Positions 9,373-47,544 of a stretch of DNA of 64,000 bases are shown here, piece after piece. Below the pieces are notes generated by a model, which was not told where the DNA came from, searched no databases, and worked only from the letters and a program-made list of their open reading frames with translations. Position numbers and translations under genes: made by a program. Position 1 is the stretch's first letter. Each line of letters opens with the position of its first letter. Location of the stretch: assembly GCF_054482595.1 (NCBI RefSeq), contig NZ_CM137008.1. One strand, written 5' to 3'.

Positions 9373-9460
9373 GGTGAGGTGTCCGAGTGGCTGAAGGAGC
9401 ACGCCTGGAAAGTGTGTATACGGCAACGTATCGGGGGTTCGAATCCCCCCCTCACCGCCA
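9373..9460 (+). tRNA. serX: tRNA-Ser (anticodon GGA), class II with long variable arm, 88 nt
   Basis: GGTGAGGTGTCCGAGTGGCTGAAGGAGCACGCCTGGAAAGTG...GGTTCGAATCC...CTCACCGCCA; 7-nt anticodon loop CUGGAAA; T-loop GGTTCGAATCC; encoded CCA. Confidence 0.92.
9447..9460 (+). repeat. attL core: 14-bp direct repeat (ccccctcaccgcca) forming the serX 3' end
   Basis: Identical 14-mer recurs at 51067..51080 in the same orientation, immediately before a terminator-like hairpin that would be the native serX downstream sequence. Confidence 0.65.
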
Positions 9461-19377: not shown

Positions 19378-19640
19378 ACATGTATTCCCGGTGAAAAAAG
19401 ACAAAACCCCGCGCACCGGAAAGGTGGCGGGGGATTCACGGAGATAATATCTGTCTGAAATTATTTAGAATGCACCTGGTGCACTGCAAAGGAAAGGCAA
19501 TATTCCGTTCCTCCTCCTTGTCGTGAATACCCCAGGTATCTCACAATGTACACCGACTTACTCCGGGGCTGCCTGAACCACAAGATTGCTGTAGAATTGC
19601 CCCCAATGATTCAGGTCCAAACCAGGAAAATGGATTAAAA

Positions 19641-21212
19641 ATGACAAGTATTCAACAACGAGCAGAACTGCACCGCCAGATATGGCAAATTGCCAATGAT
19701 GTCAGAGGTTCTGTTGACGGATGGGATTTTAAGCAATACGTTCTGGGCGCGCTTTTCTACCGTTTTATCAGCGAAAATTTTTCCAGCTATATTGAAGCCG
19801 GTGATGACAGTATCTGTTATGCGAAACTGGATGACAGCGTAATTACTGATGACATTAAAGACGATGCCATCAAAACTAAAGGCTACTTCATCTACCCAAG
19901 TCAGCTTTTCTGCAACGTAGCTGCGAAAGCAAATACCAATGACAGACTGAATGCAGATTTAAACAGTATCTTCGTTGCTATCGAAAGTTCTGCTTACGGT
20001 TACCCTTCAGAAGCTGACATCAAAGGTTTGTTTGCTGATTTCGATACCACCAGTAACCGCCTGGGTAACACCGTTAAGGATAAAAATGCCCGCCTGGCTG
20101 CGGTTCTGAAAGGGGTTGAAGGGTTAAAACTTGGTGACTTCAACGAACATCAGATTGACCTGTTCGGCGATGCCTATGAGTTCCTGATTTCTAACTATGC
20201 GGCGAATGCTGGTAAGTCAGGCGGCGAGTTTTTTACACCGCAGCATGTCTCTAAGCTGATTGCACAACTGGCTATGCACGGGCAGACCCACGTTAACAAA
20301 ATCTACGACCCAGCCGCAGGTTCCGGTTCGCTGTTGTTACAGGCGAAAAAGCAGTTTGATGACCATATCATCGAAGAAGGCTTTTTTGGTCAGGAGATCA
20401 ACCATACGACCTATAACCTGGCGCGTATGAACATGTTTTTGCACAACATCAACTACGACAAGTTTGATATCAAGCTGGGCAATACGCTGACTGAGCCGCA
20501 CTTCAGAGATGAAAAACCGTTTGATGCCATCGTTTCTAACCCGCCGTATTCAGTGAAATGGATTGGCAGCGATGACCCGACGCTGATTAACGATGAGCGT
20601 TTTGCCCCGGCTGGCGTCCTGGCCCCCAAATCAAAAGCTGACTTCGCGTTTGTATTACATGCGCTGAACTATCTTTCGGCCAAAGGTCGCGCCGCGATTG
20701 TCTGCTTCCCGGGTATTTTTTACCGTGGCGGCGCAGAGCAGAAAATCCGTCAGTATCTGGTCGATAATAACTATGTCGAAACCGTGATTTCACTGGCACC
20801 GAACCTGTTCTTTGGCACCACCATTGCCGTAAACATTCTGGTGCTGTCTAAACATAAAACGGATACCAAAGTTCAGTTTATTGACGCCAGCGAACTGTTC
20901 AAAAAAGAGACTAACAACAATATCCTGACCGATGCCCATATCGAACAGATTATGCAGGTATTTGCCAGCAAGGAAGATGTTGCTCATCTGGCGAAATCTG
21001 TTGCGTTTGAGACTGTTGTCGCGAATGACTATAACCTGTCGGTGAGCAGCTATGTGGAAGCGAAAGATAACCGCGAAATTATCAATATTGCTGAACTGAA
21101 TGCAGAGCTGAAAACCACGGTCAGCAAAATCGACCAGTTGCGTAAAGATATTGATGCAATTGTGGCTGAAATTGAAGGCTGCGAGGTGCAGGTAATGACT
21201 CCAACTTATTGA
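19641..21212 (+). CDS. hsdM: type I restriction-modification N6-adenine methyltransferase subunit HsdM; last ~7 codons supplied by IS1
   Basis: 523 aa; SAM-binding motif [10 protein letters not shown] and catalytic NPPYS; C-terminus ...[14 protein letters not shown] reads into the IS1 inverted repeat (IS1 begins at 21191). No hsdS or hsdR nearby. Confidence 0.8.
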
Positions 21213-21958
21213 TAGTGTTTTATGTTCAGATAATGCCCGATGACTTTGTCATGCAGCTCCACCGATTTTGAGAACGACAGCGACTTCCGTCCCAGCCGTG
21301 CCAGGTGCTGCCTCAGATTCAGGTTATGCCGCTCAATTCGCTGCGTATATCGCTTGCTGATTACGTGCAGCTTTCCCTTCAGGCGGGATTCATACAGCGG
21401 CCAGCCATCCGTCATCCATATCACCACGTCAAAGGGTGACAGCAGGCTCATAAGACGCCCCAGCGTCGCCATAGTGCGTTCACCGAATACGTGCGCAACA
21501 ACCGTCTTCCGGAGCCTGTCATACGCGTAAAACAGCCAGCGCTGGCGCGATTTAGCCCCGACGTATCCCCACTGTTCGTCCATTTCCGCGCAGACGATGA
21601 CGTCACTGCCCGGCTGTATGCGCGAGGTTACCGACTGCGGCCTGAGTTTTTTAAATGGCGGAAAATCGTGTTGAGGCCAGCGCCCATAATGCGGGCGGTT
21701 GCCCGGCATCCAACGCCATTCATGGCCATATCAATGATTTTCTGGTGCGTACCGGGTTGAGAAGCGGTGTAAGTGAACTGCAGTTGCCATGTTTTACGGC
21801 AGTGAGAGCAGAGATAGCGCTGATGTCCGGCAGTACTTTTACCGTTACGCACCACCCCGTCAGTAGCTGAACAGGAGGGACAGCTGATAGAAACAGAAGC
21901 CACTGGAGCACCTCAAAAACACCATCATACACTAAATCAGTAAGTTGGCACCATTACC
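21191..21958 (-). mobile_element. IS1 (768 bp)
   Basis: Terminal inverted repeats ggtaatgactccaacttattgat (21191-) and atcagtaagttggcaccattacc (-21958); internal insA/insB. Flanking 9-mers differ (cgaggtgca vs caaaaatac), so no target-site duplication. Confidence 0.9.
21206..21903 (-). CDS. insAB: IS1 transposase genes insA (21628..21903) and insB frame (21206..21709); InsAB' made by -1 frameshift
   Basis: Ins[44 protein letters not shown]...; InsB ...[21 protein letters not shown]... Confidence 0.9.
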
Positions 21959-22061
21959 CAAAAATACATGCAACTAAAACAGGGTTATTTACAGACAAAT
22001 TTAAAATTAGCTGAAAGTTAATATTATTTTTTCGGAGCCTTTTCTGGCCCCGAATATTGCT

Positions 22062-35534: not shown

Positions 35535-37427
35535 TTAGCCAAGAATCGAACGGCGAACTTTATAATAATATTTGATGAGCTTATTTCTTCTTGGCGAACC
35601 GACAGGAGCATATTTGTTAACATATGGCATTAAAGCTCTTTTAATCTTTGTCTGCAGTAACACGGTTTGCTGCAGTTCAGTATGTTGGTTAGGTACTACC
35701 GTGGCCACAGGTAACTGGCGATAGTAGATTTCTTTCTCCCATGGCGTACTTAAAACATTCTCAAGAAAATCATCATAGAAATCGACTTTCTCAGTATTCC
35801 ATGGTTTGTTTTCACCCGCATAGTGAATCATTTTTGGATTTCTTCTGGCTTGCAAAAAGCGCATATAGGTTGAAAACTTGAGATTCGGGAAGAAATCATC
35901 GGTATTACCATTACCATGGTACACGTTCCATTCTAATGGTAAGAATTTGACTCGGCCAAAGAAGACTTTGTTCATGATATCCTGATCTAAGAACCAATAC
36001 TTTTTGGCTTTCAATGCTGACATCAATTGAGCAAAGGTATTCTCTGTAACCATTTGTTCGACATTAAAAACAATAATCCCGGCCTGAAAATATTCGTCAG
36101 GATTAGTCATTCCTAATGTCTTTTTCAGGTATTGCTCTGCAGGCATAATGCCATCATCTGATTCTGACATGGTACCAAACTTCACAAACCCTTCCATGAC
36201 GATGTCTTTAACAGCGGCAACCAGGTTAGTGCCGATCTCGACATCCAGAAGTGTCGCCAAATCAGCCTTCACCACGGTGTCAGAATCGATAAACACAACT
36301 TTTTTATACTCGCGGAAAAGTTGCGGGATGAACAAGCGCGCATAGGTCGACGCACTAAAATGTGCACGGGTATGAACATCACTCATCTCAGTGAATGAAT
36401 TCACATCAAAAAAGCGCAATGATATGTTGTTATGACCAGCAACTAGCTTGATAAGGCGTTGTTTATTTAAATGACTGACCTTATTTTCCAGAACAACGAT
36501 ATCATAGTTTCTGCTCGCATCAGAATGGAGAACAATTGAATTGATTAATGCCCCGCCACTTAATGCATAGTTATTATCAAAACTAATAACAACCGGTACG
36601 CTTTCGTCAAAAACGGGCTTTAATTTACCATTAAATGTTTCAGCAGTAACAAACGTGCGCTGTAGTTCTTTTATTTTTAGCTGTTTATCTTGTTGACATT
36701 TGATGATATAGATATTGAATAAACGCTCAGCAATGTGTCCTATAACTCGTTTTTCTTGAGCGTTGTAGTTATTCATCGAAATCCGATCTTCAAGATTAGA
36801 CAAAATAGCAAAAAGCCATTCAGAATAATCCAGGAACATGTCTTTGCGCATAACAAACATGTTCGTATAATAACCATCAGTTGCATTATTGAATTGTTGA
36901 ATCGCAGCTTTATATTGTGGATACAGCTCTTCAACGACATCCAGGGCAGACTGATAGTCTTTAATGTGTAAAAACTCACCTTTTGCATAATGATCAAGGT
37001 TATTCTTACTTCCTGCCGATGTTACCGACCATTTTTTGGGTAACAGCAGATCATATCCATCGACGCAGGTGCTTATGGATTCATCACTTAATCCAAACTG
37101 GCTTTCGTATTCGGCATTGATGAGCGGGTAGTTGACTACCCCCCAGTTATCCTCAGGATGATTTTGTTGTTCTGCAAAGTTCAAGTGTCTGCGGTAATGC
37201 ATGAATCCCACATAGTCAGCCAGAGATTCATTCTTCCACACCCAGTAGTGGGCCGTCAGCTCACAATAGAAGGGGTTTTTAAAGGAAATGTTGTCTCCGC
37301 TATCATCCCCTTCACAGCCAATATCATTATAAGTATTAGCCTTCCCGACATGCAGTGGTTTAATAATAGAGGCATTTAGAAAAGCACTGGGTTTGTGGTG
37401 ACATGTATAAATTTTGATACTATTCAT
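35535..37427 (-). CDS. wbbM: bifunctional galactosyltransferase, WbbM-like (DUF4422 N-terminal plus GT8 C-terminal, 630 aa)
   Basis: N-terminal CELTAHYWVWKN-containing domain; C-terminal GT8 (VVISFDNNYALSGGALINSIVLH, DSDTVV); size matches Klebsiella WbbM (recalled). Confidence 0.65.
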   Translation of the reverse strand: MNSIKIYTCHHKPSAFLNASIIKPLHVGKANTYNDIGCEGDDSGDNISFKNPFYCELTAHYWVWKNESLADYVGFMHYRRHLNFAEQQNHPEDNWGVVNYPLINAEYESQFGLSDESISTCVDGYDLLLPKKWSVTSAGSKNNLDHYAKGEFLHIKDYQSALDVVEELYPQYKAAIQQFNNATDGYYTNMFVMRKDMFLDYSEWLFAILSNLEDRISMNNYNAQEKRVIGHIAERLFNIYIIKCQQDKQLKIKELQRTFVTAETFNGKLKPVFDESVPVVISFDNNYALSGGALINSIVLHSDASRNYDIVVLENKVSHLNKQRLIKLVAGHNNISLRFFDVNSFTEMSDVHTRAHFSASTYARLFIPQLFREYKKVVFIDSDTVVKADLATLLDVEIGTNLVAAVKDIVMEGFVKFGTMSESDDGIMPAEQYLKKTLGMTNPDEYFQAGIIVFNVEQMVTENTFAQLMSALKAKKYWFLDQDIMNKVFFGRVKFLPLEWNVYHGNGNTDDFFPNLKFSTYMRFLQARRNPKMIHYAGENKPWNTEKVDFYDDFLENVLSTPWEKEIYYRQLPVATVVPNQHTELQQTVLLQTKIKRALMPYVNKYAPVGSPRRNKLIKYYYKVRRSILG

Positions 37428-37441
37428 CTTATTACCAATTA

Positions 37442-38182
37442 TTAAGCCATTGCTTGCTTGTAAAGTTCAATGATTCTCTCTGCTGAGCCAATTTCGCGGA
37501 GTTTATGGTTTTCGATCCAAACAACTCTGTCACAGATTTTTTCAACATCACTCATATTGTGGCTAACGAATAATATCGTTACACCCTTATTTTTGAAGTC
37601 TCGTATTGTTTGTATACATTTGGCCTGGAACGAAATGTCACCGACAGCAAGTACCTCATCGATAATAAGTATATCGGGTTCTACCTGGCTGATGACAGAG
37701 AATCCAAGCTTCGCAAGCATACCACTTGAGTACACGCGAATAGGTTCGTCAATGAAATCACCCAGCTCGGAGAACTCAATTATCCGATCCATCCGTTGCT
37801 GAACCTCTTTGCGGCGTAGCCCAAGCAGGGTCGCATTGAGATAAATATTTTCTCGCCCGGTTAATTCAGGGTGAAAACCGCCGCCTAGCTCAAGCATTGA
37901 GGCAACGCGTCCCTGGGTTGTAACAGTGCCTTTTGTAGGCTTAATGACGCCGGCCACCAGCCCGAGGGAGGTACTTTTCCCTGCGCCGTTACGACCAATC
38001 AGCGCTACGGCCTCGCCTTTACCCACGGTGAAGGTAATGTCTTCGATCGCAAGATATTTACGCCCTTTTAACAGCTGAAAAGCTCTTTTAGGGTGAAATA
38101 CGAGATCCTTAATTCCTGAGCCAATATGGTGGTAAAGAGGATACTCTTTCGTAACGTGACTAAAGTTTATTACTGGTTCCAT
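37442..38182 (-). CDS. wzt: O-polysaccharide ABC exporter ATP-binding protein (246 aa)
   Basis: Walker A GRNGAGKST, signature YSSGM, Walker B LIIDEVLAVGD; start overlaps wzm stop (taATG). Confidence 0.82.
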   Translation of the reverse strand: MEPVINFSHVTKEYPLYHHIGSGIKDLVFHPKRAFQLLKGRKYLAIEDITFTVGKGEAVALIGRNGAGKSTSLGLVAGVIKPTKGTVTTQGRVASMLELGGGFHPELTGRENIYLNATLLGLRRKEVQQRMDRIIEFSELGDFIDEPIRVYSSGMLAKLGFSVISQVEPDILIIDEVLAVGDISFQAKCIQTIRDFKNKGVTILFVSHNMSDVEKICDRVVWIENHKLREIGSAERIIELYKQAMA

Positions 38183-38961
38183 TACAAAATCTCTGCAAAT
38201 CGATATTTTAATTTATTAAAAATACTCAGGCCCACAATTGTCAGGACTAAACCTGTAATGTAAAGGATTGAAATATATTCATAATTTAAGACGCCATCCA
38301 TGAACAGCTGCCGCCAGCTGAGGATCATGCTTGCCAGAGGATTATAGGTAATAATCCAGCTAAATTTTTCAGGAATCATATCTGACGCATATAATATCGG
38401 CGTGCAATAAAACATGAGCATGATACCAAGGCTGACAAATCGCTCTAAATCCCTGAAGAACAGATTTAGCGTAGAAAATATGATTGAAATACCAAATGTA
38501 AAAATCACCTGACCAAGCGCAATAATTGGTACGCCCCAGAGCCATGAGAGCGATGGACGCATACCATACACGAACAGGAATGCAATAATCACAGGAATTG
38601 TACACAAGAAATGTACCCCTTCCATCATGACATTACTCAATGGAATAACTGAGCGCGGAAAAACTGTTTTTTTGATTATTTGCGCATTGGCTATAAACGA
38701 AAACAAGGAATTTGTCGCCGAGCTGGCAAACCATTGCCACGGAAATAAACCGGTAATCAAGAAAAGGGTATAATTCGGGATCTGCACTCGCATAACGAGC
38801 TTAAAAATGAAATAATATATCATTGCAAAAAGCAGTGGATTCGCAATTGACCATAAGTAACCAAATACGCTGCTTTTATAACGTACCTTTAAATCTTTGT
38901 TTGTTATAACAACAAGAAGATCAAACAAATACCCTATATTATACTTCATTTTTATACTCAT
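38182..38961 (-). CDS. wzm: O-polysaccharide ABC exporter permease (ABC-2 type, 259 aa)
   Basis: Six predicted hydrophobic segments; first gene of the operon downstream of the ops element. Confidence 0.8.
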   Translation of the reverse strand: MSIKMKYNIGYLFDLLVVITNKDLKVRYKSSVFGYLWSIANPLLFAMIYYFIFKLVMRVQIPNYTLFLITGLFPWQWFASSATNSLFSFIANAQIIKKTVFPRSVIPLSNVMMEGVHFLCTIPVIIAFLFVYGMRPSLSWLWGVPIIALGQVIFTFGISIIFSTLNLFFRDLERFVSLGIMLMFYCTPILYASDMIPEKFSWIITYNPLASMILSWRQLFMDGVLNYEYISILYITGLVLTIVGLSIFNKLKYRFAEIL

Positions 38962-39258
38962 AAATTATTCTACAAAAAATTCCGTACGTAATATGTATCA
39001 AACAGAATTATCGATAAGATCTGCTGTGCTCGAGAGACGAACAGCTATTCCCATAAACAAAGACCAATTGTAACATCATTTTGCACAAGCAATATGTAAA
39101 CAATCTTTCCTGCGCATTAGCACTCCGGAATCGGAGATGATCGCTAACCTCAGTAACCGCTGAATGAAAATGTGATTCTCGTGGAAGATACATAAACCAT
39201 CCTTTAAGATTGTAAATAAAATGTTAAATCGAACAATGAGTTTATTCTAAAATTCAGA

Positions 39259-40324: not shown

Positions 40325-42885
40325 TAAGCGTCGTCTGAGTACCGTCTGGTCCCGAATCCAGGATCCTGTAACTTAAGCACCCACTTATTTTGCAGGTGGA
40401 CACCTCATGCGCACCAAAGAACGACTCCCCCGGAAACGCTATTCTCCTGAATTTAAAATGGAACTGGTCAGGCTGGCCCTTGAACAAGATGTCACGAACG
40501 GTGCAATAGTGGTTCTTCCGCAACTTGGGTGGAAGAAAATGGATGAAACTTTCTGGTGAACAAGGATCTAAGCTGTTTTAAGTTATGGGCAACGCAATGC
40601 ACTCTCTTAAGACACTTCTACAGTTACCTTGCGGATGGCGATGCAGTCGACAAATTATTAGCTCTGACGGTATCACCCTCCATCTCCACGGAAAACGCAA
40701 AACAGCACAATGTCCTGAATGCTCTAAGCGTAGCGACTCTGTTCATAGTTCTCGTCGGCGCCGGATACAGCATCTACCCTGCTCCGGGCAGACGCTATGG
40801 CTTGTATTTTCCGTCCGCCACTGGTACTGCCGTAACCCTGTTTGTTCACGAAAAATTTTTGCCGAGTCGCTTGCTCCCTTCGCCGGTTCACACCAGCAGT
40901 CTTCACAGGCGTTACAAAATTTACAACGTCAACTGGGATTAATAGCCGGAGGTGAGGCTGGAAAACGGGCTGCAACGGCAGTGGGTCTCCGTTGCAGTGC
41001 AGATACTCTTCTTCGCAGGGTTATCAATACCCCGGGGACGAAACAGTCAGGCGCGCCTCATGTCGGTATTGATGAGTGGGCGTGGCATCGGGGCCACCGT
41101 TACGGTAAGTTAATCGTCAATCTTGATACTCACCGTCCCCTCGTCCTGCTTCCCGGTCGTGATCAGCGTACGCTGGCGACCTGGTTCAGAAAATATCCGG
41201 AAATACAGGTTGTCTCGCGTGATCGCAGTGGAGTCTATGCAACAGCAGCACGTGAAGGTGCACCTCAGGCCAGACAGGTGGCCGATCGATGGCACCTGCT
41301 AAAAAATATTGGCGATGCGCTTGAACGAATGATGTACAGACATATACCTCTGATACGTCTTGTTGCCAGTGAGTTGTCACTAAAGAAATCACCTGAGCCA
41401 GAACTGTCTGTGCCTGCAGTATCGCTCCGTCGTCCGGAACGCCTTAAACAGCAAACCCGCAAAAAACGGCATCAGCGTTGGACAGAGGTTATGGCCCTGC
41501 ATAACAAGGGATGTAGTTTCAGGGAAATATCCCGTATTCAGGCCTGTCGCGTGTGACAGTCAGTCGCTGGGTGCGTTCAGGAACATTCCCTGAAATGTCA
41601 ACCCGACCTCCAAAGCGAGGGCTTCTGGACCCATGGAGGGAGTGGTTAAAAGAGCAACGAGAAAGCGGTAATTATAACGCCAGCCGGATATGGCGGGAAA
41701 TGGTGGCCCGGGGGTTTACAGGCAGTGAAACCATCGTCAGGGATGCTGTTGCCAAATGGCGTAAAGGCTGGATCCCACCGGTTACTACTGCCGCCAGACT
41801 TCCTTCAGTGTCCCGGGTAAGCCGGTGGTTGATGCCCTGGAGAATAATCAGGGGGGAAGAAAATTATGCTTCCCGATTTATTAGTCTGATGTGTGAAAAA
41901 GAACCGGAGCTGAAAATAGCGCAGCAACTGGTACTCGAGTTCTACCGTATTCTGAAAACCCAAAATAAATCACAGCTTAGCAGCTGGTTCACTCGAGTCC
42001 ACGAAAGCGGCTCAGCAGAACTTCGGCGCGTGGCTGCGGGGATGGAAGCTGATGCTGCGGCTATATGTGAGGCAATCAGCAGTCGCTGGAGTAATGGTGT
42101 TGTCGAAGGTCATGTAAATCGCCTGAAGATGTTGAAACGCCAGATGTATGGTCGAGCCGGATTTGAACTGCTCAGGCAGAGGGTCATGAGTCCACTGGCA
42201 TGAAAATCTCCACCCAAGTTGCGGAAGAACCACTTTTCATCCGTCGTTGACACAAGAGGGCAGTATCGCTGCTCTGGCCCGTCAACATGACGTCAACGAT
42301 AATCTGCTCTTTAAATGGATAAGGCTCTAGCAACGTGAAGGGCGGGCGGGTCTGTCGACCCCGAAAAAATGCATCGTCGCTTCCTACCCTGATACCCGTG
42401 CAACTTCAGGCGGAGCCTTCTCTCCCGGAATTCGAACCACTATCCTGTTCACCTCCCACTGCCTGCCACATAAAATGTCGGGGCGGAGAAATAACGCTGA
42501 CCTCTCCCTCAGTTGAGCTTATGAGCACTGTCCTGCGCGAACTGATGCGGGGGTCTGTATGATAAATCTTCCCGCAGGCACAAAAATCTGGCTGGTTGCC
42601 GGTATCACCGATATGCGCAACGGCTTCAATGGTCTCGCCGCAAAGGTGCAGACAGCGTTGAAAGATGACCCGATGTCCGGCCACGTCTTCATCTTCCGGG
42701 GCCGCAGCGGCAGTCAGGTCAAACTGCTGTGGTCCACCGGCGACGGACTGTGCCTGCTGACCAAAAGGCTGGAGCGTGGCCGCTTCGCCTGGCCGTCGAC
42801 CCGCGATGGCAAAGTGTTCCTGATGCCGGCGCAGCTGGCGATGCTGATGGAAGGTATCGACTGGCGACAGCCAAAGCGGTTACTG
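40325..42885 (+). mobile_element. IS66-family remnant (orf1 split by an ISL3-like insertion, orf2 present, large transposase absent)
   Basis: gtaagcg terminus at 40325; orf1 N-terminus MRTKERLPRKRYSPEFKMELVRLALEQ (40407-) resumes after the insertion as ...EGSIAALARQHDVNDNLLFKWIRL; orf2 at 42559..42924 (MINLPAGTKIWLVAGITDMRNGFNGL...DWRQPKR). Confidence 0.5.
40494..42250 (+). mobile_element. ISL3-family-like insertion sequence with frameshifted transposase
   Basis: Imperfect ~40-bp terminal inverted repeats sharing core agtggttcttccgcaacttgggtgga (40508-40533 and complement 42209-42234); transposase in two ORFs 40585..41556 and 41553..42203 (zinc-finger N-terminus, GIDEWAWHRGHRYG, C-terminal SNGVVEGHVNRLKMLKRQMYG); frame break inside an HTH segment. 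Confidence 0.55.
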
Positions 42886-43744
42886 ACGTCCCTGACATGT
42901 TGTAGCCCAGGTCTTCTTCGTTGATAAAGTTCACATCCAGAGGATGGATACTTCCTGTAGCCCGTAATATCGTCGATTCAATATCCTGCACATTCATCGG
43001 GATCACCGATGCAAGAAAAGCCCATTGATCAGAATAAGGCTGGAAATTAATATCAACAAAAACGCTTCCCCCCGATGCACGCGGTCTTTTTTGCAGAGGT
43101 AACGCGATAAGATTACCAAATCCTCCTTTTGGCATAGTATCCTGATTAGGAAATAATCGGTCATAAGAACTCAATTGCAGCTGTCGGGTCCGGCTGCACG
43201 TATAGCTAATAATAGCAGTCCCCAGACGGCGAGCTTCGCGGGCCGAAACTCGTGAAGCAAAAAATATCCAGACATGCGCTCCCTGACGTGAGCGGGATAT
43301 TTCCAGCGCAGCAGGTACACTCAGCTCATCACAGGCTCGCATGAACGCGGATGCATCCTTCTGCCATTCAGCTTTATCAAAATCAACAGCCAGAAAATAA
43401 CAGGAATCATCTTCCAGCAACGGATATAACCCGGCAGTATGCGTGCCTGCCAGATGCTGGTAGATGACAAGATCAGATACAGGGAGTAACTGACGGTGCG
43501 TACAGTCCCCGCATTTTATCCGGGGTTTACCGCATATTCTCGCCTGCCATTCGTTAGCGCAGGCAGGAGAGTACCCTGATTTGCCGCTGGTTTTACTTTC
43601 CCAACGAAGGGCCCATATATCATCACGCCCACGAAACAACCGACGAAATAATGCAACCTTCTCGTCGGTGGATAATACGGAAACGCGCTGCACAGGGCTC
43701 GGCGGTTTACGTCGCCATTCCAAGTAATGAGACCAGACGGGCAT
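42719..43744 (-). pseudogene. primase-polymerase (AEP superfamily)-like protein, probably C-terminally truncated by the IS66 remnant
   Basis: N-terminal ~285 aa with DxD (LAVDFD) and sxH (RQGAHVWIFF) primase-like motifs and a C-x2-C pair; the last ~60 codons of the track ORF are antisense read-through of IS66 orf2. Confidence 0.45.
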
Positions 43745-43947
43745 TTTCTGCCCTCAATGCAGCTAATTCATCGCTGTCAGATTTATGAACCATATTCGTT
43801 ACCTGTATCCGATCCACTGAGGCACCACGGCAGAAATTCGGGTCCCCTACACTGATGACAAAGCGCCCCGCCCTCTTCTGCCTATTAACTCAAGCACCTC
43901 CCAACAACTTACAGAAACTTAATTCTAATACCTAATACAGCTGTAAT

Positions 43948-44511
43948 TCAGTTGTGTCGTGGTCGGCCCCGGTTACTTTTTTCGGGAAGCCTGCTACGGC
44001 CCAGAATAATACCGTGTTCTTTCTGATCCTGTTTAGCCAGGTAGCTGAGGGCGTAACGTAAGTCGTCTACTGCGGACTTATCACTATAGTGAATCACGTG
44101 ATCGATACGCACCGGGTATTTATCTTTAGCCCGGCACAGATGAAAATAACCCTCCCCTTCCGTGATCCGCCTCCAGATATCCCCCAGTTGCCTGGATATC
44201 TGATAAGAGTTCTTGTGACGTTGCCCATCCAGATAGCCGATAAAATGAATATGAAGCCCTTTGTCTGGTGTATATTCCATAACCCAGTAATATCCTGCCA
44301 ACATCGTCTGGGTTTCGCTAAGTAAACGGTATATTTCCATACACATACTGTGCTTACAGGAATGCCCGAAACTGGGCGTGTCTTTCCTGTAGGCAAAATC
44401 AATTCTGAAAGGTAACAGTTTAGAAAAACGTTGAAACAATCCCTCCATGTGTTCATTCACATCTTTCAGAATCGCGAAATTCATTTCGTAATTGGGATTG
44501 GCATTATACAT
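43948..44511 (-). CDS. hypothetical protein (187 aa), possibly YfjJ/YagK-type (inovirus Gp2-like)
   Basis: ORF track; HIHFIGY motif; position in an integrase/AlpA/DUF3987-type module; family assignment uncertain. Confidence 0.4.
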   Translation of the reverse strand: MYNANPNYEMNFAILKDVNEHMEGLFQRFSKLLPFRIDFAYRKDTPSFGHSCKHSMCMEIYRLLSETQTMLAGYYWVMEYTPDKGLHIHFIGYLDGQRHKNSYQISRQLGDIWRRITEGEGYFHLCRAKDKYPVRIDHVIHYSDKSAVDDLRYALSYLAKQDQKEHGIILGRSRLPEKSNRGRPRHN

Positions 44512-45720: not shown

Positions 45721-47544
45721 TCATCGAGGATCTGACTGGTTGTTTTTAGTATCATCACCACAAATGATGGTTAATGCGTTGTAGATCAGTCTGCGTCTGT
45801 TCTTGTTTTCAGCATTATTTCCATACAACATCATGACGTTTTTAATATCATCAACCGGTGATATTACATAATCAACCAATACGCCAAGCTTCTCAATACA
45901 TTGCAGTAAAGTATATTTGTGTCTGCCCGTAAATAATCCTATCAGGTTTTCTTTACTTTCACGACTGGATAATATTTTGTTCTCTGTAATTAATTCAGCC
46001 AACGTTTCACCATCGTAAACACGTTCTTTATCTATCAGAATATTTATCTTATCTAACGCCCTCTCTACATTATCAAGAAGACCTGTAATATACGGAGGCT
46101 GAATATCTGACTTTGTACTAATATTTGCAAGCATCGAATTATACATTTTAATGACACGCATCAGAGTAAAATTATTCGCATCATATTGTATTTCATCTTC
46201 ATTATACGCAGGATCCGTCACGACCCTTAAGTCCATAAATGCATCCTGATAAGCTTTTACATAATCAAGTAATTCGAACAGTGAACCATGCTTTATTTTC
46301 TCCCTGTTTAATTTGATCTCCAGCGCTATCCTGAGAACTGAAAAAGCGCCGGGAAGATACCCAGAAGGTAACTCGTATTTTGGGGATTCATCATAAAACC
46401 GAAGAGCTTTGTGGAGTTTGTTCCGCCGAATCAGATAAATAAGGACGGCCAGTAACATGTAGCACCTGGTCACATAACCACGGGCATTCTGCAACTGTTC
46501 AAAATAATTAATAATGTTTTCCAGATATACATCATCATAACTTTTCTTATCAGAAAGATTAAACACCATATCTTTTAAAGATTCGATATATTCTTGTGAT
46601 TTATCATCAAGTGACACAATATAACGAGTTAATGCTCCTTTGGGGCCACTCTCAAACTCATGAAACCGTTCAAGTAATGCTCTTGCATAAGGCGTTGTGT
46701 CAAAAATATTAAAATCATAAAGATAGCGTGCAGCGTAGCCATACAACCCATGTACCCAAAGCCCTTCTCTTATCAGCACTCTGAGATAATATGCAATACT
46801 GTCAAGTATCTTTACCTTCCGTTGCATATCAAGCAAAATACTTAATGAATAAAATGCATAATAGAACTTGTCAATGTTGTTGAGTATTCTGTCCAGCTCA
46901 CTCTTATCAAGCTTCTTCTCTCTGTAATCCTTCTTGTATTCATTCTTACAGGCCTTTATATATTGTTTCATAAGGCTCTTCCTTTTACCGTACCCTTTTC
47001 GAATAGTTCCCTGGTATTTTCCCAGCTCATACATTTTTCCGTTTTCCCGAAAATCTTCTCTGTTAAATCCCAGTTCAGCAAGATACTCCCGGAGATAACG
47101 TTTAACGGCAGCCTCATCGCTTTCTGTACCAGAGTAATCCAGGCAGGGACAATATGATTTTTGCAAAAAATTATAGATATGATAATAAAACCCTGTTTCA
47201 TTCTCCGGACGATATGTGTTATATATATCCAGCACAATAAAAACAACTCCAAAGCTTTTCAGAAAATAGTTACGGATATATTCGGACTTTAATGTTGAAT
47301 ACACAGGGTAAGAATTCATCATGTAATAAAAATATTCATACCGGGAAAATATAATTCGCCGTTGTTCCAGACTATACACCCCTTCAGCATCAATAATTTG
47401 ACTGAGCTCATTATAACGTTGATCCCAGAATCTTTGATGCGCTCCAAAATCAGTACTCTTCCGCTTATCTCTCGGACTCTCTCCTTCCTTAAACAACTCA
47501 AAAACTGTACAAATATCATACAAAAGATTTGTAAACATGCGCAT
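45721..47544 (-). CDS. hypothetical protein (607 aa), AT-rich, no recognisable catalytic motif; divergent from alpA
   Basis: ORF track; Lys/Tyr/Asn-rich, largely helical-looking sequence; no Walker A, HKD, HNH, DDE or HEPN-like motifs recognised by eye. Confidence 0.6.
   Translation of the reverse strand: MRMFTNLLYDICTVFELFKEGESPRDKRKSTDFGAHQRFWDQRYNELSQIIDAEGVYSLEQRRIIFSRYEYFYYMMNSYPVYSTLKSEYIRNYFLKSFGVVFIVLDIYNTYRPENETGFYYHIYNFLQKSYCPCLDYSGTESDEAAVKRYLREYLAELGFNREDFRENGKMYELGKYQGTIRKGYGKRKSLMKQYIKACKNEYKKDYREKKLDKSELDRILNNIDKFYYAFYSLSILLDMQRKVKILDSIAYYLRVLIREGLWVHGLYGYAARYLYDFNIFDTTPYARALLERFHEFESGPKGALTRYIVSLDDKSQEYIESLKDMVFNLSDKKSYDDVYLENIINYFEQLQNARGYVTRCYMLLAVLIYLIRRNKLHKALRFYDESPKYELPSGYLPGAFSVLRIALEIKLNREKIKHGSLFELLDYVKAYQDAFMDLRVVTDPAYNEDEIQYDANNFTLMRVIKMYNSMLANISTKSDIQPPYITGLLDNVERALDKINILIDKERVYDGETLAELITENKILSSRESKENLIGLFTGRHKYTLLQCIEKLGVLVDYVISPVDDIKNVMMLYGNNAENKNRRRLIYNALTIICGDDTKNNQSDPR

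Follow-up and report, generated by a model that had tools for sequence, protein, structure and literature searches.

A 5' remnant of the IS-excision enhancer gene iee joined to an IS66-family remnant

A 341-aa open reading frame (ORF) in the stretch of DNA analyzed here (64,000 nucleotides, hereafter the window) raises the question of which gene it represents and whether that gene still works. Some genome annotations treat the ORF as a genuine "DNA primase small subunit domain-containing protein". A first-pass annotation, made from the letters alone, described it as a primase-polymerase-like gene truncated by an IS66 remnant, and took it for the probably destroyed replication protein of the element, in line with a cryptic, immobilized island. 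The ORF list of the window places the frame at exactly the coordinates given there (Table 1). Comparison with intact homologues identified the ORF as the 5' remnant of iee, a known E. coli gene of a known family, and not as an island replication primase. We are highly confident that it is a doubly disrupted iee pseudogene in a SpLE1/CP4-57-like integrative island at tRNA-Ser.

Identity of the open reading frame

The BLASTP comparison with the protein annotated "IS-excision enhancer IEE" of O157:H7 Sakai SpLE1 (ECs_1305/NP_309332.1, 786 aa) revealed an identity of 252/276 residues (91%) between ORF residues 5-280 and IEE residues 26-301, and no similarity to Sakai IEE was found beyond ORF residue 280. 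ORF residues 9-280 correspond to IEE residues 30-301, and the first 8 residues lie outside the ancestral iee frame. The N-terminal ~285 residues had been assigned to an archaeo-eukaryotic primase (AEP)-like region; this part is indeed AEP-derived, with its end at residue 280. The remainder (residues 281-341) is antisense to IS66 tnpB, in line with the antisense read-through of IS66 orf2 that had been proposed.

ORF residues 28-257 matched the Pfam family AEP-TOTE (PF22548) with an E-value of 5.5e-100, far beyond chance. Both the AEP-like DxD (LAVDFD) and sxH (GAHVWIFF) motifs of the first-pass annotation were located and are conserved in the family, where they correspond to the invariant D142/D144 and G176/H178 of the family alignment. 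The residues that are catalytic in IEE (D142, D144, H178 and D216; PMC9943667) occupy invariant columns of the same alignment. The C-x2-C pair, likewise noticed before, comprises the two cysteines of IKCGDC, which are C99/C102 of a nearly invariant cluster (C83/C92/C99/C102). The AEP domain of the remnant contained no internal stop, and all of its catalytic and cysteine residues were intact. The "Z1568-like" AEP family takes its name from Z1568 of EDL933.

Table 1. Positions of the iee remnant, its lesions, its motifs and the adjoining features in the window.
Feature	Position	Strand	Evidence or content
IS66-family remnant	42247..42905	(+)	Pfam TnpB_IS66 (E 1e-37), NCBIfam IS66_TnpB, alignment with L008, SMS-3-5 annotation
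tnpB of the IS66 remnant	42559-42905		1-nt deletion near its end, by which its ORF continues to 42924
341-aa ORF	42719..43744	(-)	8 out-of-frame residues, followed by IEE 30-301 and a tail of 61 residues
ORF tail, antisense through IS66 tnpB	42719..42904	(-)	Not ancestral coding sequence
Deletion junction	42905..42906		Three-way comparison of the window, IS66 copy L008 and intact iee L003
iee segment B: IEE residues 30-301, whole Z1568-like/AEP-TOTE domain	42906..43720	(-)	BLASTP, Pfam PF22548
Motif C, SYDRLFPNQD	43139-43168		
Motif B, GAHVWIFF	43259-43282		ORF aa 155-162
Motif A, LAVDFD	43376-43393		ORF aa 118-123
IKCGDC	43502-43519		ORF aa 76-81
Four-Cys cluster of segment B	43502-43561		
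Site of the 14-bp deletion (AAGCTCATGGGATT missing relative to intact alleles)	43720..43721	(-)	Pairwise alignment with O104:H4 iee
iee segment A: ancestral ATG (43793) and IEE residues 1-24	43722..43793	(-)	tblastn with Sakai IEE, 100% identity
ECs1304 homologue, 187 aa, YagK/YfjJ-like, annotated "inovirus-type Gp2 protein"	43948..44511	(-)	Gene order; weak Pfam matches

Intact homologues only ~285 aa long would have spoken against a truncation, and those that we found span 786-788 aa. Among the best 120 database homologues, 114 have 782-790 aa and six have 744-774 aa, the latter mostly on 3-9 kb contigs or labelled partial, and the AEP and helicase domains are both present in 120/120. At E<=1e-30, the family as a whole comprised 1,485 clusters, with typical lengths of about 780-980 aa. 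Intact homologues carry ResIII and Helicase_C (Pfam), and their helicase domain belongs to SF2, being closest to XPB/Rad25, UvsW and RadD.

Two deletions and their predicted consequences

The first lesion is the 14-bp deletion, through which IEE residues about 25-29 are lost and codon 25 is frameshifted; the aligned length was 909 nt in intact alleles and 895 nt in the window. Translated from its ATG, segment A reads MVHKSDSDELAALRAENARLVSLLGMAT and then ends in a stop after 27 codons, leaving no uninterrupted frame of ~786 aa. The ATG of the 341-aa ORF is internal and is preceded by an SD-like GAGGG with a 6-nt spacer. PGAP independently labels the gene "frameshifted; incomplete; missing C-terminus" and places the pseudogene start at the position equivalent to 43793.

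For the second lesion, the window was compared with an intact iee reference (L003) and a near-identical (97.6%) IS66 reference copy (L008). IS66 homology ends at 42905/42906 and iee homology starts at 42906, with ~1 nt common to both. Aligning intact homologues, as the first-pass annotation had suggested, thereby located the breakpoint. Codons 302-786 of iee are gone, and codon 301 is joined to tnpB at the final base of its ancestral stop codon, TAG (42903-42905), a position inside the IS66 element and not at an IS terminus. In the IS66 remnant, tnpA' has both a TAG in frame and an insertion of 4 nt. The element has neither tnpC nor a right IS end, and an ISL3 element takes the place of its left part. 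As IS homology reaches no further than the tnpB stop, and as tnpC, the IS end and iee codons 302-786 are all missing, the truncation is a deletion and IS66 insertion was ruled out as its cause; the gene is truncated, as had been claimed, by a deletion whose junction lies inside the IS. The SF2 helicase-like domain (Walker A K451, DExH, arginine finger R735) is absent from the remnant, as IEE similarity stops at residue 301. The helicase half was not found elsewhere in the 64-kb window, where tblastn returned only IEE 1-24 and 26-301, and neither the lost 3' half of iee nor the spacer downstream of it turned up when the window was searched for them.

The 14-bp deletion, the ancestral ATG at 43793, the junction at the tnpB stop and the identification of the gene as iee go beyond the first-pass annotation.

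A search of 5,426 complete E. coli genomes listed 45 full-length matches of 99.9-100% identity, and every one of these has the identical junction; in one genome, the remnant has been eroded further by IS1, down to 70 nt. The dN/dS relative to the closest intact allele was 0.38, from only 18 substitutions, too few to tell relaxed from maintained constraint.

Experiments have shown that IEE acts in IS excision and end joining, and the latter requires both of its domains (PMC9943667). In intact IEE, the N-terminal Z1568-like AEP domain acts as a Mn2+-dependent, error-prone DNA polymerase, and the C-terminal SF2 helicase-like domain, a DNA-dependent ATPase, holds DNA and draws two 3' ends to each other. 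Jointly, the domains perform microhomology-mediated end joining (MMEJ), and in vivo the protein promotes the transposase-dependent excision of IS3- (IS629-type), IS1- and IS30-family elements. The 14-bp deletion put iee out of frame at codon 25. The larger deletion took codons 302-786 and the spacer and, from IS66, tnpC and the right end, thereby joining codon 301 to the tnpB stop of the neighboring IS66-family element and creating a fortuitous 341-aa ORF. Since end joining needs both domains, the remnant is predicted to lack IS-excision activity. The AEP-Dom construct of IEE (stop at codon 289, residues 1-288) was active as a polymerase in vitro, and end synapsis and joining were absent (Calvo et al. 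2023, PMC9943667). Loss of function is thus the likeliest state of the remnant, as a domain-only IEE can polymerize and would be unable to join ends.

The same construct allows a different view, in which the 341-aa ORF would be expressed and kept as an AEP polymerase that works alone, the natural counterpart of AEP-Dom. A domain-only protein is possible in principle because of the SD-like GAGGG 6 nt before the ORF ATG; the AEP domain and the Zn-type cysteine cluster are complete with zero internal stops, and all 45 listed full-length matches carry the identical allele. However, the ORF starts at a fortuitous ATG outside the ancestral frame, its 61-aa tail consists of antisense IS sequence, and the near-identity of the carriers points to recent common descent rather than selection. 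Moreover, the remnant has been cut to 70 nt by IS1 in one genome, a promoter scan found no promoter above chance upstream of the ORF, and the exact 341-aa protein was not found in a collection of 15 billion proteins. We regard retention of such a protein as improbable. Slightly less probable still is a remnant that is not inert: with translation beginning at the fortuitous SD/ATG at 43744, it would yield an error-prone AEP polymerase that stands alone and lacks the end-synapsis domain. In a related version, the deletion itself would be a by-product of IEE-type microhomology joining beside an IS.

Neighboring genes and the role of the intact family

In every E. coli locus examined (Sakai, O157 180-PT54, O104:H4, M19 and EC93), the upstream neighbor of iee was the 187-aa ECs1304 homologue, and an ECs1304-like gene also occupies the orthologous position upstream of iee in the SMS-3-5-type island. 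The 187-aa gene showed weak, sub-threshold Pfam matches to REP_ORF2-G2P and YagK_YfjJ_C, HUH-like (LHIHF) and YxxK-like (YLAK) motifs, and marginal similarity to K-12 YfjJ (E 0.001). This weakly Rep/G2P-like neighbor, the AEP domain, the integrative nature of the island and the retention of the gene pair in several E. coli islands would suit the island's own replication primase-polymerase (P4-alpha/plasmid Prim-Pol type), destroyed by IS66 insertion with the island immobilized as a result. Several observations oppose this. The intact orthologue is IEE, with experimentally shown functions in IS excision and end joining (PMC9943667), its partner helicase is of the SF2 XPB/RadD-like type and not of the replicative SF3/D5 type, and the junction coincides with the tnpB stop codon instead of an IS end. 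The island carries its own separate and intact DUF3987/YfjI-type gene and an integrase, and homologues in 80 other species sit in varied non-replicon contexts. Similarity to primases was borne out by the AEP-TOTE match, but neither Pfam Prim-Pol nor D5_N was listed at E <= 0.01. A replication module of a Rep-like gene with an AEP-helicase was rejected as well: the Pfam matches of the neighbor are sub-threshold, its YfjJ similarity is marginal, and the published function of IEE made such a module unnecessary. The replication-primase reading is already largely refuted, and we consider it extremely improbable. "Replication protein of the element" was a misassignment, and the loss of iee says nothing on whether the island is immobilized.

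The intact family could also act primarily as an anti-mobile-element or anti-phage "conflict" effector, with IS excision as one manifestation, in which case the cargo slot of this island would hold a dead defense gene. This is suggested by the Pfam/PGAP name of PF22548 ("TOTE conflict system AEP"), by a match to the PADLOC Cas-associated PrimPol profile PDLC01465 (E 1e-143), and by the closest solved AEP chain, 7nqd/7nqf (E 6e-27), which was deposited as "TPR_REGION domain-containing protein" and which we take to be CRISPR-associated Prim-Pol (CAPP). Distant homologues adjoin type I restriction-modification genes, RhuM, YhcG, Schlafen/AlbA_2, SIR2 and AbiE, and one has a fused PLD nuclease. 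In K-12 CP4-57, the AbpAB and RnlAB defense genes occupy the position after yfjI-yfjJ; ShosTA-like genes come after iee in M19 and EC93, as does a ShosT fragment in O104:H4. On the other side, the Pfam search found no TPR, CSD/OB or TBP family among the E. coli neighbors or the 140 immediate neighbors in 79 other loci, and those neighbors are heterogeneous, the commonest family, AbiEii, accounting for 7/140. Literature searches on "AEP-TOTE"/PF22548 and on primase-polymerase defense experiments found no phage-defense experiment for the IEE protein, and what has been demonstrated for it is confined to IS excision and MMEJ (PMC9943667). A primary defense role is, in our judgement, rather unlikely, and it alters the presumed role of the gene, not the pseudogene verdict. 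The label "TOTE conflict system" taken literally was rejected, as TPR/OB/TBP partners were found neither in E. coli nor in 80 loci from other species.

One neighbor of 607 aa showed no detectable domains in the Pfam scan, and a divergent TPR there is possible on that account. In other phyla, IEE homologues often adjoin restriction-modification, AbiE, Fic and SIR2 genes, with TPR/OB/TBP partners absent.

The locus is best annotated as a truncated, frameshifted iee pseudogene, and not as a replication primase, a live "TOTE conflict" protein or a "DNA primase small subunit" protein; its significance beyond correct annotation is small. Carriers of this island variant, for example SMS-3-5-like strains, are predicted to lack IEE-enhanced excision of IS3/IS1/IS30-type elements. 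The many IS remnants that surround the locus would agree with this, as an association and not as a demonstrated effect. The neighborhood pattern of IEE homologues in other phyla may help work on the true biological role of the gene.

Comparison with known systems

Replicative Prim-Pol proteins of plasmids, phages or satellites (P4 alpha/pRN1 ORF904 type), in which an SF3 (D5/P4-type) replicative helicase is fused or paired with the Prim-Pol domain, differ from the gene, whose intact homologues have SF2 ResIII/Helicase_C instead. The AEP domain in the window belongs to PF22548, the family named after the TOTE conflict system (2022), as far as that system is described in a citing paper (PMC12458937); the effector of such a system carries this domain. 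In contrast, the TPR-OB (CSD) and TBP-domain genes that share an operon with the effector were undetected beside the gene, both in E. coli and in the 80 further species examined.

Among solved AEP folds, the Prim-Pol-type domain of 7nqd/7nqf comes closest in the profile comparison, and the Prim-Pol clade motifs are common to both. However, the window gene scored 89 bits against NCBIfam NF040561, whose cut-off is 200 bits, has no nearby cas genes, and differs in the partner domain.

The AEP-Dom construct retains the same domain with an almost equal C-terminal boundary (288, compared with 301 in the window), although the predicted window product lacks IEE residues 1-29 and has 8 unrelated N-terminal residues and a 61-aa unrelated tail.

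Compared with IEE of Sakai SpLE1 (ECs1305), the window gene lacks residues 302-786, is frameshifted by 14 bp at codon 25 and ends in antisense IS66 sequence. Even so, the two share 91% amino acid identity over IEE 26-301 with equivalents of D142, D144, H178 and D216, an ECs1304-like gene upstream, a tRNA-Ser integrative island of the same type, and an IS66-family element downstream in the same orientation.

Identity of the gene and its AEP domain

The ORF listing of the window revealed a 341-aa ORF with exactly the coordinates that the first-pass annotation had assigned to a primase-polymerase-like gene. Residues 28-257 of this ORF matched the Pfam profile PF22548 (AEP-TOTE) from end to end (E 5.5e-100), DNA_primase_S was a second, weaker Pfam match, and the match to the NCBIfam CRISPR-associated Prim-Pol model NF040561 was sub-threshold. 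The DxD motif, the sxH motif and the Cys pair were found where that annotation had placed them, and the AEP assignment was upheld. In an alignment of 31 diverse members, from which family conservation was judged, C83, C92, C99 and C102 formed a nearly invariant four-Cys cluster, and D216/R217 (SYDRLF) was the third catalytic motif.

A search on 'Z1568-like', an AEP family named after an EDL933 gene, led to a study of the IS-excision enhancer (IEE) of O157:H7, which describes a 786-aa protein with a Z1568-like AEP domain (residues 1-290), an SF2 helicase-like domain (291-786) and the key residues D142, D144, D216, H178, K451 and R735 (PMC9943667). These residue numbers were identical to those of invariant columns in our alignment. 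In the Sakai genome record, ECs_1305 (NP_309332.1, 786 aa), located within SpLE1, is labelled 'IS-excision enhancer IEE'; the gene immediately before it, ECs_1304, encodes a 187-aa protein, and the IS66-family element ISEc8 comes after it. BLASTP aligned ORF residues 5-280 with Sakai IEE residues 26-301 (252/276 identities) and revealed no similarity past IEE residue 301. Given this match, and an ECs1304 homologue immediately upstream of the remnant, the window gene is iee, an already known gene in a decayed state.

Locations of features in the window and in the intact protein
Feature	Position	Strand	Remark
tRNA-Ser	9373-9460		
Island	~9461 to 51000		between tRNA-Ser and clpA
ISL3-family transposase	40585-42203	+	split into 323-aa and 216-aa ORFs
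IS66 tnpB	42559..42924	+	Pfam E 1e-37; NCBIfam IS66_TnpB
Ancestral tnpB stop codon	42903-42905		TAG
Limit of iee homology	42906		
ORF (iee remnant)	42719..43744	-	341 aa
LAVDFD	ORF aa 118-123		family D142/D144
GAHVWIFF	ORF aa 155-162		family G176/H178
IKCGDC	ORF aa 76-81		family C99/C102
14-bp deletion	between 43721 and 43720		
Ancestral iee start	43793		ATG
Retained 5' segment	43793-43722		IEE residues 1-24, 100% identity (tblastn)
ECs1304 homologue	43948-44511	-	187 aa
AT-rich ORF	45721-47544	-	607 aa
AEP-TOTE (Pfam)	intact protein aa 49-277		
ResIII (Pfam)	intact protein aa 423-565		
Helicase_C (Pfam)	intact protein aa 639-738		

Intact copies of iee, 2,361 nt (786 aa) in length and ~93% identical to the window at the nucleotide level, were found in many strains, O157:H7 and O104:H4 among them; the closest intact allele, that of strains M19 and EC93, was 96.3% identical and encoded 788 aa. 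Among the 120 best matches in a 5.8-billion-protein database, 114 were 782-790 aa long and all 120 contained both domains, while the remaining six (744-774 aa) were mostly on 3-9 kb contigs or labelled partial. An exhaustive search of representatives yielded 1,485 clusters at E<=1e-30, typically of ~780-980 aa, with similarity usually spanning query residues 45-420. Intact homologues are therefore much longer than ~285 aa, in agreement with the truncation proposed in the first-pass annotation.

Two lesions in the window allele

The first lesion is the absence of 14 bp (AAGCTCATGGGATT) that are present in intact alleles, and the ancestral frame stops after 27 codons. The ATG of the listed ORF is internal and out of frame, and it is this deletion alone that brings the ORF into the IEE frame; its first eight residues are not ancestral, and residues 9-280 correspond to IEE 30-301. 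A putative product could possibly be translated from this chance ATG, as GAGGG lies 6 nt upstream of it and the AEP domain contains no stop; however, the promoter scan upstream gave results at chance level, and the exact protein was absent from a large protein collection.

The second lesion lies at the IS66 remnant. Because the plus-strand gene encodes IS66 TnpB, the last 61 codons of the ORF are antisense to it, as had been read earlier from the sequence. Homology to the nearest IS66-family copy (97.6% identical) stops at 42905/42906, on the final base of what was the stop codon of ancestral tnpB. Absent at the joint are iee codons 302-786, the intergenic spacer, tnpC and the right IS end, and ~1 nt is common to both sides. 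An IS insertion or IS-end event was rejected as the cause, since the junction is at the tnpB stop and the right IS end is missing. Judging from the sequence of the joint, the truncation arose by deletion, with one of the two endpoints lying in IS66, and the mechanism given in the earlier reading had to be replaced. Sakai, O157 180-PT54 and O104:H4 each have an IS66-family element in the same orientation, 0.3-0.8 kb downstream of iee and with tnpC as its proximal gene; from such an arrangement, a single deletion would yield the iee/tnpB fusion of the window. These three elements are only 85-88% identical to that of the window, and the direct ancestor was not found.

The IS66 remnant also contains a 1-nt deletion near the tnpB end, because of which the tnpB ORF runs on to 42924, and an in-frame TAG and a 4-nt insertion in tnpA; its left part was replaced by an ISL3 element. 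One intact 539-aa ISL3 transposase is annotated at the equivalent place in SMS-3-5, from which the window differs by a 1-nt indel in this gene, and the window therefore represents another strain or a variant sequence. No other iee pieces were found in the 64-kb window by tblastn or blastn.

Transposase-dependent excision of IS629, and of further elements from the IS3, IS1 and IS30 families, is promoted by intact IEE. The AEP domain of IEE acts as an error-prone DNA polymerase that depends on Mn2+, the helicase-like domain hydrolyses ATP in a DNA-dependent manner but does not unwind DNA, and microhomology-mediated joining of 3' overhangs requires both domains (PMC9943667). A construct stopped at codon 289 still polymerises DNA, but its products are short, it displaces strands poorly and it is unable to bring two ends into synapsis (PMC9943667). 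In the window, iee is frameshifted at codon 25 and breaks off at codon 301, and the best-supported reading of these lesions and the published biochemistry is that IS-excision function would be lost.

Distribution of the truncated allele

The 1.2-kb region was 100% identical in SMS-3-5 and dozens of other complete genomes, and the window is from E. coli. In SMS-3-5, PGAP describes a pseudogene ('TOTE conflict system archaeo-eukaryotic primase domain-containing protein; frameshifted; incomplete; missing C-terminus'). Of 5,426 complete E. coli genomes, 866 gave a match to the 5' part of iee. Among the full-length matches listed at 99.9-100% identity, tnpB adjoined iee in 45/45 records (48 records in all reached at least 99%), and one further genome, F1053, had the same junction. 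The truncated allele thus goes back to one recent event and has been inherited since. Over 271 retained codons, dN/dS was 0.20-0.23 against the O157 and O104 alleles and 0.38 against the closest intact allele, where 8 synonymous and 10 non-synonymous changes are too few to prove relaxed constraint.

In F1053 (NZ_OY757949.1, 2809740-2825809), erosion by an IS1 (IS1A) removed all but 70 nt of iee, and the locus now adjoins phoH rather than the integrase/clpA side, which indicates a further IS-mediated deletion or rearrangement. The EC93 record NZ_CP061330.1 ('plasmid pCP127') is a 127-kb 'plasmid' with chromosomal proB, proA and tRNA-Thr, then the iee island and cdiBA, which points to misassignment of the replicon or to plasmid capture of a large stretch of chromosome.

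The IEE family and the island compared with known systems

We retrieved 80 loci from other species and clustered the neighbour genes. The neighbours of IEE homologues were very variable and included type I R-M subunits, RhuM, YhcG, Schlafen/AlbA_2, SIR2, an SbcC-like ATPase, AbiE, Fic and RelE/PIN toxins; the commonest families among 140 immediate neighbours were AbiEii (7), Fic (4) and RhuM (3). One homologue had a fused PLD nuclease. A conflict or defence role of the family is possible on these gene contexts and, if true, would leave the verdict on the window locus unchanged.

Every E. coli locus examined had the ECs1304 homologue immediately upstream of iee. The protein has GLHIHF as an HUH-like motif and SYLAK as a YxxK-like motif; it matched Rep ORF2/G2P and YagK/YfjJ only below threshold, and its similarity to K-12 YfjJ was marginal. 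It is a possible nickase-like partner of IEE. In 11 of the ~80 non-E. coli loci, a ~183-aa gene was found directly upstream of the IEE homologue, often overlapping it (loci L014:6150-6701, L016:9331-9888, L024:5540-6085 and eight more); its product looks helical by eye, its representative had no Pfam match, and the gene is a candidate partner that E. coli lacks.

In O104:H4, intact iee is followed directly by a 62-aa ShosT-matching fragment (locus L003:14386-14574, PADLOC E 2.8e-15), and in M19 and EC93 by a complete DprA-like gene and a 208-aa gene (locus L009:12392-13908) that are probably ShosTA; in some islands the position after iee is thus occupied by defence cargo.

By definition, the TOTE operon comprises TPR, OB, TBP and Effector (PMC12458937). 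No TPR, OB or TBP partner was found at any IEE-homologue locus examined, and the IEE family therefore falls outside this operon definition, although its AEP domain bears the TOTE name.

The AT-rich 607-aa ORF had zero Pfam or NCBIfam matches, and its 611-aa O104:H4 counterpart had zero matches in Pfam, PADLOC and PHROGs. In SpLE1-like islands, the corresponding near-integrase position is filled by ORFs of ~545-620 aa that lie in either orientation (that of Sakai, ECs_1300, carries the annotation 'membrane protein'), and similarity was shown only for the O104:H4 copy (75% nt over 452 nt). At ~19640-39000, the island contains a type I R-M M subunit gene adjoined by IS1 and a polysaccharide cluster with glycosyltransferases, glf and an O-antigen-type ABC transporter, which is broken up by copies or remnants of IS1, IS3, IS5, IS256 and IS903.

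The island also encodes an AlpA-like HTH protein together with an integrase and a DUF3987/YfjI-type protein that are both intact; the O104:H4 homologue of the latter had matches among phage PHROGs to 'DNA helicase' and 'DNA primase'. The proposal that the primase-like gene was the element's replication protein was rejected: the gene is iee, a separate intact DUF3987/YfjI gene is present, and the helicase half of IEE has its closest matches in XPB/Rad25, UvsW and RadD rather than in replicative SF3 helicases. As in K-12 CP4-57, the order of the island is intA, alpA, yfjI, yfjJ and then cargo, and the CP4-57 cargo directly after yfjJ consists of the AbpAB and RnlAB defence genes.
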